This document shows, one piece after another, positions 1 through 2,302 of a stretch of DNA of 21,992 bases (the first letter of the stretch is position 1; every line of letters starts with the position of its first letter). The notes under the pieces are model-generated. The model had not been told where the DNA came from, did not search any database, and saw only the letters and a program-made list of their open reading frames with translations. The stretch is taken from positions 1-21,992 of the forward strand of contig JAITXJ010000033.1 in the NCBI GenBank assembly GCA_031284745.1. The letters run 5' to 3'. Both the position numbers and the translations under genes were made by a program. The DNA is from Acholeplasmatales bacterium (lineage in GTDB: Bacteria; Bacillota_I; Bacilli_A; Acholeplasmatales; Acholeplasmataceae).

Positions 1-244
1 CAGAATCGGTTGTGATTTGAATATTAGTGACTGTGTCAATAGTAGTATTGACTATTATTGGAACGGATAACTTTTCATTACTTAACTTTGGGTTACCAAT
101 TTTAAAATCAGCTCGCTCATAATAATCCAAATATTCAGGAAAATAATAATCTACCTTAGGCGTGGGTGAAGAAGGACGACAACTAGTTAGTAATAGAAAT
201 AATAAGATAAAATGTGACAAAATAAATATTTTTTTATCAAACAT
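1..244 (-). CDS. Lipoprotein paralog, N-terminal part only (ORF continues beyond the window's left edge). Predicted N-terminus MFDKKIFILSHFILLFLLL(T/A)SC.
   Basis: Positions 1-245 are ~95% identical at nucleotide level to 2058-2302, the 5' end of the lipoprotein gene at 1372-2301. Minus-strand ATG at 244-242 opens a frame that reads to the window edge and encodes the same signal peptide and lipobox. The start overlaps the stop of the upstream gene by 8 nt. Confidence 0.55.
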   Translation of the reverse strand, partial: MFDKKIFILSHFILLFLLLTSCRPSSPTPKVDYYFPEYLDYYERADFKIGNPKLSNEKLSVPIIVNTTIDTVTNIQITTDS

Positions 245-1052
245 AATATTTTTGTAACCATGCTTCTAAGGCTGGAAAAGTAGGAAAATATTTTGCGCCT
301 GTGCCGATAACAGTATTATTTTTAGCTTTGGCGTAAAAATAAATGCTAGTATCTCTAATAGTTGATACTAATTGTTTATTTTCAAAGTCTGTTTTAGATT
401 TGTCATTTTCCCTAGTCCACTTATAAATTTTATAAGTTAATAGAGTTTCATATTTGTAGGCTTCTACCCAAGTAGAAACAAATAATACTATTGGGCCGTT
501 AATTGCGTAGGCATCGATAGAAGTACTTTCCTCATGATAGGTAGTTTTACTAATTGAATTTGAAATAGAGGTTGTTACTTCTGTTGATAACGTCGTTTGT
601 TTTTCACTCCCAACTTTTATTAAATCAAATAAACTTGCAGATGCAGTTAACTTCAAACTAATTGAAGCCCCAATTGACAAACTTAAAGCCTCTGTTGTTG
701 TATAGTTGACAGAATTTGAATTTGTGATTGTATAAGTTACTGTATCACTTGAAGCCCCAAATTCATGATAGGTAAGCGCCGTAAATGGAACCCCATATTC
801 AAGTAATGAATACTTGTATAAATCATATACAATTGCAATGCTATAGCCTACCTTACTATTTTGTTTAGTTGGAACAATCTCAGATTCTATAACATCTGTT
901 TTAATCAAACTTCTACTAGTGTTGGTGCCAGTACCACCATTTTGATCAATTGTGGAAAAAGAAACATCTTTTGCAGACAAACTAACACCACTAGTGATTA
1001 ATGCTAACCCTAAAGTAAAACAAAATACAATTAATAAATACGCTTTTTTCAT
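237..1052 (-). CDS. Secreted Ser/Thr/Tyr-rich beta-type protein with a Sec signal peptide (no lipobox). It may belong to the aerolysin / ETX-MTX2 beta-pore-forming toxin fold.
   Basis: N-terminus MKKAYLLIVFCFTLGLALITSGVSLSA is a typical signal peptide. SD GGGAG lies 7 nt upstream of the ATG. A central alternating hydrophobic/Ser-Thr stretch (EALSLSIGASISLKLTASASLFDLIKVGSEKQTTLSTEVTTSISNSIS) resembles the amphipathic membrane-insertion hairpin of aerolysin-family toxins. Stop is TGA followed directly by TAA. Confidence 0.6.
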   Translation of the reverse strand: MKKAYLLIVFCFTLGLALITSGVSLSAKDVSFSTIDQNGGTGTNTSRSLIKTDVIESEIVPTKQNSKVGYSIAIVYDLYKYSLLEYGVPFTALTYHEFGASSDTVTYTITNSNSVNYTTTEALSLSIGASISLKLTASASLFDLIKVGSEKQTTLSTEVTTSISNSISKTTYHEESTSIDAYAINGPIVLFVSTWVEAYKYETLLTYKIYKWTRENDKSKTDFENKQLVSTIRDTSIYFYAKAKNNTVIGTGAKYFPTFPALEAWLQKYYV

Positions 1053-1371
1053 ACCATCTCCCTAAATACCCTAATAAATACCCTAATACGCTAATATTAT
1101 ACAACTTAATATTTTTTTTTAAAAGAAATTTGAAAATAGATTTTAACACCAAGTTAGAACTCCGTTTTGAATTGGATTAAGTCAATTACTTTACTTCTAT
1201 CAGTGATAATCTTTCTTGCTAGTAATTTTAAAATGGTTGTCTTATCTCCACCAGATCACTCTCATTAATAACGAAGGAAACATTTTCAAATGTTACTCTA
1301 TTTCTCAATCTTTTAAACATTATTTACTTTAATTATATTTATTGCTTGCAATATTTTAAATACTATCCTTT

Positions 1372-2301
1372 TTAACGAAAATCGCTCTCTCGTAGAACCT
1401 CGCTCTTTTTGAGAATAATATTACGAAAAAAAGAACTACCTAAAAAGTAACTTGGTATTGGTTTATCTATCTCATGTCCAAAAGCACCAACAGTTGTTGT
1501 TGTAATTACTATTGTTCTGCCATCTGTACAACCTAGTGTTAAATAGGACATTTCGCTATATAGTAGAGAATCATATTTATCTAATTTAAAGCGAAACTTA
1601 AATAAGTAGTCTTCTTTGCTGTCAAGAGTAAAAGGAAGGTTCACAGTATTAATGAATTCCCCGGCTGGAATCACGCCACCATTAAAATTTATGACAGACT
1701 TATATTGGATACTTTCGATGATAAAATTAGGATGTTCTATCTTATTTATTAAATAAGGAAGATATCCTGACCAATTGACAAAATAAAGAGCTTCAAAATA
1801 TTCACCATCAAAATAAACTAAATCAACGTTAGAGAAGTTTATTGCTACTCCGGTATTTATTACTCCATTTTCATAAATTACCTTAATTTTAACCGGAAGT
1901 GATATGGAATAATTATTAATATCAAATTTTATATTTTGGATTTCAAAATTATAAATAAAATCTTCAGAAGTTAATATTAAATCTATAGAATATAAATAAT
2001 ATTTTTCATCAAGAATTTCCGGTATAGAAATATCAAAAAAAATGCCTTCAATTAAAACAGAATCGGTTGTGATTTGAATATTAGTGACTGTGTCAATAGT
2101 AGTATTGACTATTATTGGAACGGATAACTTTTCATTACTTAACTTTGGGTTACCAATTTTAAAATCCGCTCGCTCATAATAATCCAAATATTCAGGAAAA
2201 TAATAATCTACCTTAGGCGTGGGCAAAGAAGGACGACAGCTGGCTAGTAATAGAAATAATAAGATAAAATGTGACAAAATAAATATTTTTTTCGATAACA
2301 T
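1372..2301 (-). CDS. Lipoprotein of unknown function, 309 aa (lipobox LLASC).
   Basis: Signal peptide MLSKKIFILSHFILLFLLLASC has an L-A-S-C lipobox. A long ORF. Its first ~81 codons are duplicated at window positions 1-244. Confidence 0.7.
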   Translation of the reverse strand: MLSKKIFILSHFILLFLLLASCRPSLPTPKVDYYFPEYLDYYERADFKIGNPKLSNEKLSVPIIVNTTIDTVTNIQITTDSVLIEGIFFDISIPEILDEKYYLYSIDLILTSEDFIYNFEIQNIKFDINNYSISLPVKIKVIYENGVINTGVAINFSNVDLVYFDGEYFEALYFVNWSGYLPYLINKIEHPNFIIESIQYKSVINFNGGVIPAGEFINTVNLPFTLDSKEDYLFKFRFKLDKYDSLLYSEMSYLTLGCTDGRTIVITTTTVGAFGHEIDKPIPSYFLGSSFFRNIILKKSEVLRESDFR

Positions 2302-2302
2302 A
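2058..2302. repeat. Second copy of a ~245-bp direct repeat (~95% identical to the first copy at 1-245). It corresponds to the 5' ends of two paralogous lipoprotein genes.
   Basis: Direct base-by-base comparison of the two segments shows about 10 mismatches, clustered near the start codons and signal-peptide n-region. Confidence 0.85.

Follow-up and report, generated by a model that had tools for sequence, protein, structure and literature searches.

The window analysed here, 21,992 nt with 33.5% GC, comprises an entire contig from a metagenome-assembled Acholeplasmatales bacterium (locus tags LBV55_033xx). At one end it carries a gene coding a predicted secreted protein, sec1, whose 3' end overlaps the start of a lipoprotein gene (lipoprotein B); a second, complete lipoprotein gene with a near-identical 5' region (lipoprotein A) precedes sec1. 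The succession of a secreted protein gene and a lipoprotein gene is a conserved unit, found in three other lineages and again in the same metagenome-assembled genome (MAG). Judged from their sequences, sec1 could be a new pore-forming-toxin-like protein and the coupled lipoprotein its immunity or partner protein, with duplication of the lipoprotein gene, a reading that is preferred here with slightly less than even confidence. Loci of this type, be they toxin/immunity-like or secreted-protein/lipoprotein modules, are known; the two component families are undescribed and extremely rare.

Organization of the locus

All genes of the locus are coded in the minus strand, a point that the original prediction had left unstated, and their order in the direction of transcription is nrdD, nrdG, a 113-nt spacer, lipoprotein A, a 319-nt spacer, sec1 and lipoprotein B. 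The lipoprotein A open reading frame (ORF; 1372..2301; P0002, LBV55_03315) codes a complete protein of 309 amino acids that begins MLSKKIFILSHFILLFLLLASC... and features a signal peptide with the lipobox LLAS↓C (MLSKKIFILSHFILLFLLLAS↓C...). The sec1 gene (237..1052; P0001, LBV55_03310) codes 271 amino acids comprising a Sec signal peptide, a Gly/Thr-rich linker, a β-rich body and the carboxyl terminus ...QKYYV. Lipoprotein B (1..244) is cut by the contig end after its first 81 codons, which translate from 244 to 1 as MFDKKIFILSHFILLFLLLTSC... and contain the lipobox L-T-S-C (LLTS↓C) at the end of the amino terminus MFDKKIFILSHFILLFLLLTS↓C....

A repeat search of the window paired positions 1-256 with 2058-2313 at 95% identity and a spacing of 2057 nt. 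The two copies differ at 13 of 256 nt, and 10 of these differences fall in the coding part of 244 nt. Over positions 1-109 the copies are identical. This is far beyond chance, all other repeats in the window being at most 40 nt long with 65-87% identity. Codons 2-3, where lipoprotein B accommodates the sec1 stop, hold four of the ten coding differences, so that the repeat unit begins essentially at the start codon. The amino termini of lipoproteins A and B are 95% identical at the protein level. The original prediction had assigned ~95% identity to positions 1-245 and 2058-2302, with a signal peptide, a lipobox and ~80 residues coded by each copy and a single secreted β-rich gene between them, and the analysis bears it out on each of these points. 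The similarity may reflect a recent duplication or gene conversion, as far as can be read from the 244 nt visible of copy B.

The lipoprotein B initiation codon ATG (244..242) is located 8 nt inside sec1, whose stop codon TGA (239..237) is followed by TAA. Stop and start overlap in ATGTTTGA (237..244, minus strand; ...TAT T[ATG TT(TGA]) TAA), as had been predicted. TGA is a genuine stop codon in this organism: table 11 leaves long housekeeping ORFs, like the 786-aa nrdD, uninterrupted, and the end of sec1 coincides with that of its homologues. Lipoprotein B has no strong Shine-Dalgarno site of its own. As the stop/start overlap is also kept in two relatives (L008 and L009, see below), the predicted translational coupling of lipoprotein B to sec1 is a reasonable inference. 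Lipoprotein A is not preceded by a secreted protein gene and is 319 nt apart from sec1. A Shine-Dalgarno-like sequence read from the DNA, GGTGGAGGG (2316..2324, minus strand), is found 14 nt upstream of its ATG within the 113-nt spacer, so lipoprotein A would be translated independently and not by coupling.

Contig L001 of the independent Logan assembly (run SRR14710888) corresponds to window positions 206..1374. It crosses the sec1/lipoprotein B junction and has the mismatches by which lipoprotein B is set apart, showing that the junction is not an assembly artefact. The ends of L001, like the end of the MAG contig within the 109-nt identical stretch, resemble assembly-graph breaks at repeats, and the contig probably ends there because of the lipoprotein duplication. 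L001, which was assembled with k=31, stops precisely at the stop codon of lipoprotein A (window 1345-1374), implying that ~30 nt 3' of lipoprotein A recur in a second context in the sample, either a further paralogue or a strain variant.

Conservation of the gene pair

A full HMMER scan of 1.84 billion representatives identified five relatives of sec1: P0004 and P0005 (43-44% identical), P0006 (a 79%-identical fragment), P0007 (25%) and P0008 (24%), the last from a Haloplasmataceae MAG. Sec1 and the lipoprotein family gave no match in Pfam, NCBIfam, PADLOC, PHROGs or PDB, and genome and metagenome contig collections scanned with the lipoprotein alignment (A1) and the secreted protein alignment (A3) yielded no relative. 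Looking up the exact proteins P0002, P0003 and P0006 returned no entry. No homology was detected between the lipoprotein and the secreted family. A housekeeping relative of the lipoprotein, such as a substrate-binding protein, was not found in Pfam, NCBIfam or PDB: the lipoprotein has no substrate-binding domain at E <= 1, and its neighbours are nrdG and nrdD, with no importer genes nearby.

Among the four relatives with readable downstream DNA, the secreted protein gene is directly followed by a lipoprotein homologue in three (L008, L009 and L002). In L008, P0004 precedes a lipoprotein that is 51% identical to P0002 over 83 amino acids (the first 83 aligned residues; E = 5e-27). The N-V codons of the secreted protein gene, whose stop codon is at 942-944, contain the lipoprotein ATG (932-934), 8 nt ahead of that stop. 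In L009, P0005 is followed by an overlapping gene for a MLSKL...LIGC lipoprotein (MLSKLNLCISLLFAIFLIG↓C...) with the ATG inside Y-V codons. An ATG embedded in Y[YN]V codons at the 3' end of the secreted protein gene is thereby common to the window, L008 and L009. The Haloplasmataceae locus L002 codes P0008 and, 46 nt downstream, a 288-aa lipoprotein with 24% identity over 223 amino acids (E = 4e-6). A carboxyl terminal ESDF motif is common to both lipoproteins, ESDFY in L002 and ESDFR in the window copy. The exception is L010, which has different genes 3' of P0007. This protein (L010 1265-2095) is the most divergent Acholeplasmatales-type paralogue, in which a lipobox-like VVFS↓C replaces the signal-peptidase-I site. 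Its gene precedes one for a small membrane-anchored protein and then one for a lipoprotein different from the usual partner.

The pair is also present at the edge of a 13,842-nt contig from the same MAG, where a partial secreted paralogue (LBV55_03445; P0009, 79% identical) directly precedes and adjoins a lipoprotein (LBV55_03450; P0003) that is 79% identical to lipoprotein A. P0003 and P0009 may form a paralogous cassette or be the allele of a co-binned strain. The genes of toxin/immunity pairs are adjacent, co-oriented, co-translated and kept as a pair. Here the two coding sequences overlap in the window, L008 and L009 and are adjacent in L002 and in LBV55_03445/LBV55_03450. The repeated lipoprotein/secreted protein cassette of the original prediction does recur, and the duplication extends beyond the two copies of the window to a third lipoprotein (P0003) and a second secreted paralogue (LBV55_03445) in the MAG. 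The order of the cassette had to be reversed, however: the unit is secreted protein then lipoprotein, and sec1 has its coupled partner in copy B at the left edge. This leaves lipoprotein A as an additional copy without partner.

In the Haloplasmataceae relative (L002-L006), further genes of the same strand come directly after the pair, separated by short spacers or overlapping. They code a membrane-anchored 275-aa protein, an ATP-binding cassette (ABC) ATPase, an FtsX/MacB_PCD permease, a second anchored protein, of 269 amino acids, and a polytopic membrane protein. The lipoprotein showed no homology to the anchored proteins of L002. In NCBIfam, the L002 ATPase is matched best by TIGR03608, the lactococcin-972-type bacteriocin ABC transporter, with E = 6e-66 but a score under the curated cut-off. 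The cluster is placed between hslO and maf and resembles bacteriocin export or immunity loci. Sporulation proteins YabP, YabQ and SpoIIE are encoded a few kb upstream (L002 1649-4874 and 10001-16609). The secreted family thus extends beyond organisms that are wall-less and do not sporulate.

Sequence features of the secreted protein family

The sec1 signal peptide, MKKAYLLIVFCFTLGLALITSGVSLSA↓K..., spans about residues 1-27. Signal peptides are found in all full-length members of the family, with the lipobox-like motif in P0007 instead. In all members the signal peptide is followed by a short strand and then by a Gly-rich linker, with a poly-Gly run in P0005 and P0008. The Gly run (up to 11 G) or Gly/Thr-rich linker occupies residues ~41-51 of P0005, ~38-46 of P0008 and 36-46 of sec1 (window ~915-947, minus strand). 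It could serve as a flexible tether, or else as a pro-segment to be cleaved off, as in toxins activated by amino terminal cleavage.

A Ser/Thr-rich stretch is found around residues 90-170, reaching 30-44% Ser+Thr over 50-aa windows. It harbours a candidate membrane-inserting β-hairpin at sec1 residues ~105-170 (543..740, minus strand), with amphipathic arms at residues 121-142 and 150-170 and the turn LFDLIKVGSE. When the family-averaged hydropathy profile was compared to column shuffles, the strongest period-2 alternation of the mature family was found at residues 120-146 (p = 0.0025 with 16-residue and 0.0085 with 20-residue windows). The first arm of sec1, L-S-L-S-I-G-A-S-I-S-L-K-L-T-A-S-A-S-L, alternates perfectly and leads to the hydrophobic turn, whose E is invariant.

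Possible relationship to pore-forming toxins

An amphipathic segment with Ser/Thr-rich flanks is the hallmark of aerolysin-type β-pore-forming toxins (PMC4179158, parasporin review; PMC3182943). Sec1 has such a segment in its candidate central hairpin, less clear in the second arm, and resembles monalysin, parasporin-2/Cry46 and the epsilon-toxin/MTX2 group also in being secreted, ~25-30 kDa in size and β-rich, with very long predicted strands. The sub-threshold matches to toxins in the PDB align at this segment (PMC3182943; PMC4179158). Parasporin-2 (2ztb) was the sole match of profile A3 at E <= 10 (E = 0.18) and was also matched by P0004 alone (E = 0.039), while monalysin (4mjt) was one of the two matches of profile A2 (E = 2.3); each alignment covers the Ser/Thr segment. 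A formally significant phmmer match of P0004 residues 147-242 to zebrafish gamma-glutamyl hydrolase (4l8w, E = 5e-4) was considered spurious, as it was reproduced neither by P0001 or P0008 nor by either family profile. Searches of plasmids by tblastn with monalysin and parasporin-2 fragments and with P0001 gave nothing usable.

Modelling of sec1 with AlphaFold2 (AF2) reached a predicted local distance difference test score (pLDDT) of 33 from the single sequence, and a pLDDT of 62 with a predicted template modelling score (pTM) of 0.58 from a six-sequence alignment. The latter model has strands of 26-30 residues (68-97 and 188-213) and a helical hairpin at residues 120-164. When it was compared to the PDB with Foldseek, no match had an E value under 0.07, and the TM scores were 0.08-0.22. 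Of the 50 best matches, about three quarters are, by the authors' own count, pore-forming proteins, none of them significant; they include gasdermin, MACPF proteins, Clostridium perfringens enterotoxin, HA70, gamma-hemolysin and a putative pore-forming toxin of Bacteroides. This outcome is compatible with a toxin but is not evidence of fold membership.

Several observations weigh against an aerolysin-type toxin. In the second arm of the candidate hairpin, the hydropathy has a mixed period of 2 and 4. P0001, P0004, P0005, P0007 and P0008 gave no match at E <= 1 in Pfam, including the Aerolysin and ETX_MTX2 families, and no toxin match reached statistical significance by sequence or structure, those in the PDB having E = 0.04-2.3. 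They fall in a compositionally biased segment that in P0004 also matches antibody light chains, and may thus be partly compositional. Sec1 also differs from these toxins in having no recognisable receptor-binding domain and in being coupled to a lipoprotein gene. The ABC transporter context comes from one lineage only, with a 24%-identical relative, and the window ends inside lipoprotein B. To our knowledge, aerolysin-type toxins normally have no immunity protein, so the precedent for the proposed role of the lipoprotein is a loose one.

Proposed function of the pair and alternatives

A toxin/immunity function of the pair is plausible from its sequence and arrangement. The first gene of the two-gene module would code a Sec-exported β-rich protein of ~25 kDa, acting as a small aerolysin-type β-barrel pore-forming toxin that oligomerises on the target membrane and inserts its central Ser/Thr-flanked amphipathic hairpin. 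The second gene would code a lipoprotein translated by coupling and anchored to the outside of the cell membrane. Produced at a constant ratio to the toxin and displayed on the membrane of the producer, it would confer immunity by neutralising or sequestering the toxin. The additional lipoprotein gene copy upstream would be a recent duplicate, lipoprotein A being an orphan immunity gene. Fixed-ratio co-expression is common for toxin/immunity pairs, and the ATG embedded in the end of the secreted protein gene in the window, L008 and L009 fits such co-expression.

Orphan immunity genes are also found in the polymorphic toxin/immunity loci of colicins, contact-dependent inhibition (CDI) systems and type VI secretion system (T6SS) effectors. 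The locus described here shares with them an immunity-like gene immediately 3' of the putative toxin gene and overlapping it, additional copies of the downstream gene that lack a partner, and the occurrence of diverged cassettes in one genome. It differs in relying on predicted Sec-dependent export with no delivery-system genes, and in that the proposed immunity protein is extracytoplasmic. Its orphan copy is full length and located upstream, not in a downstream array.

Immunity to membrane-active bacteriocins is provided by lipoproteins and ABC transporters, as in NisI/SpaI with LanFEG and in the lactococcin 972 ABC system. The common features are a surface lipoprotein encoded beside a predicted secreted, membrane-active product and, in the Haloplasmataceae relative, an ABC exporter 3' of the pair with an ATPase nearest to TIGR03608. 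Unlike in those systems, the lipoprotein has no LanI homology, the L002 transporter is of the MacB/FtsX type with adaptor-like proteins rather than LanFEG, the presumed toxin is a 25-kDa protein and not a peptide, and no transporter is visible in the window.

A different and rather unlikely role is that of a non-toxic surface complex or variable surface antigen, in which the lipoprotein would keep the secreted protein, as a structural or adhesive subunit, at the cell surface and the diverged copies would provide antigenic or host-range variation. Lipoprotein multigene families serve this purpose in Mollicutes, where they are represented by Vlp, Vsa and Vsp. The host, an Acholeplasmatales bacterium related to Mollicutes, fits this view, as does a lipoprotein multigene family with near-identical signal peptides and 5' ends across copies (at least three lipoprotein and two secreted protein copies at 79-95% identity). 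The distant paralogue P0007 may be lipid-anchored through its VFS↓C motif, and the evidence for a toxin is sub-threshold. The locus departs from the Vlp, Vsa and Vsp families, however, in having a conserved non-lipoprotein partner gene, no repetitive mature domains or tandem peptide repeats in the mature proteins, and no phase-variation switch. No coding tandem repeats were found in the window, whose only arrays are the 12-nt repeat of the sec1 leader and a weak 21-nt AT-rich one; there is no phase-variable homopolymer or short-repeat tract beyond a run of 7 A, and no inverted or invertible repeats flank the promoters. Surface variation specific to Mollicutes also does not fit the homologous pair of the Haloplasmataceae MAG with sporulation genes, which is single-copy and located beside an ABC exporter, and it leaves the long amphipathic Ser/Thr-rich segment unexplained.

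Less probable still is that the two proteins are substrate and accessory, as extracytoplasmic components or cargo, of a MacB-type ABC/adaptor machine like that of L002. The machine would serve in export, in maintenance of the envelope or in resistance, and neither protein would be involved in toxicity; the window would then show only the first genes of a longer operon that runs off the contig. In L002-L006 the ABC/adaptor-type genes do follow the pair directly on the same strand, and the end of the window inside lipoprotein B leaves room for downstream genes. The ABC context is nevertheless seen in one lineage only, L008 and L009 being too short to show it, and P0007 in L010 is followed by different genes. 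A duplication of secreted protein and lipoprotein genes that does not include the transporter is more usual for cargo or immunity genes than for components of a machine. This explanation also overlaps with the toxin/immunity one, as bacteriocin loci carry such transporters as well.

Finally, an assembly artefact making the terminal 256 nt a spurious copy of the lipoprotein A 5' region, as might be suspected from a repeat that touches the contig end and is identical at positions 1-109, a typical place for graph breaks, is effectively refuted by the 13 specific mismatches, four of which shape the functional stop/start overlap, by the independent assembly across the junction, and by the same gene order and overlap in unrelated samples.

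Transcriptional signals and neighbouring genes

The intergenic region between lipoprotein A and sec1 (1053..1371, minus strand) features a promoter-like TTTAAA-16-TATAAT (1123..1096) and a Shine-Dalgarno sequence GGGAGA (1062..1057) just 5' of the sec1 ATG, both identified by consensus match only. Between them, in the sec1 leader (window 1063-1088, minus strand), is a perfect 12-nt tandem repeat, TAAATACCCTAA x 2.2. It reads AGGGTATTT AGGGTATTT AGGGAGA in the coding strand and provides two extra AGGG Shine-Dalgarno-like motifs upstream of the real one. The repeat may be a regulatory or slippage-prone element. The Rfam search of the window found no RNA family.

Upstream of lipoprotein A are nrdG (2990..2415, minus strand) and nrdD (5283..2923, minus strand). 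The nrdG ORF as listed, with a TTG start at 2990, overlaps the nrdD 3' end by 68 nt (2923-2990), and its true start is probably further downstream. The remaining contig is occupied by housekeeping genes: asnB, pepF, an ogt-like gene, flotillin, Fe-ADH, rseP, dxr, cdsA and uppS. A second small paralogous cluster on the contig consists of three successive genes on the plus strand (10184-10564, 10677-11024 and 11444-11836) coding proteins of 126, 115 and 130 amino acids, each with an amino terminal zinc-ribbon. One of the three also has DUF4190, and short DNA repeats are common to all (family D4).

Implications

Should the toxin/immunity interpretation be wrong, the locus would remain a clean example of a secreted-protein/lipoprotein module that is lineage-restricted and breaks metagenome assemblies by its duplication. 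In its most extended form, which is possible but on the doubtful side, the interpretation holds that the pair represents a previously unrecognised family of small β-barrel pore-forming toxins with a dedicated, translationally coupled lipoprotein immunity protein. Bacteria of the Acholeplasmatales and of the Haloplasmatales lineage would use it against membrane-exposed competitors or host cells, and the cassette duplication and orphan immunity genes would reflect an ongoing arms race. If the toxin/immunity interpretation as such is right, a toxin family of ~six members among roughly 15 billion proteins has been missed by sequence profiles, together with the family of its immunity protein. Possession of their own surface immunity lipoprotein would be unusual for aerolysin-like toxins, and would show how a bacterium shields its own membrane from a pore former that it secretes.

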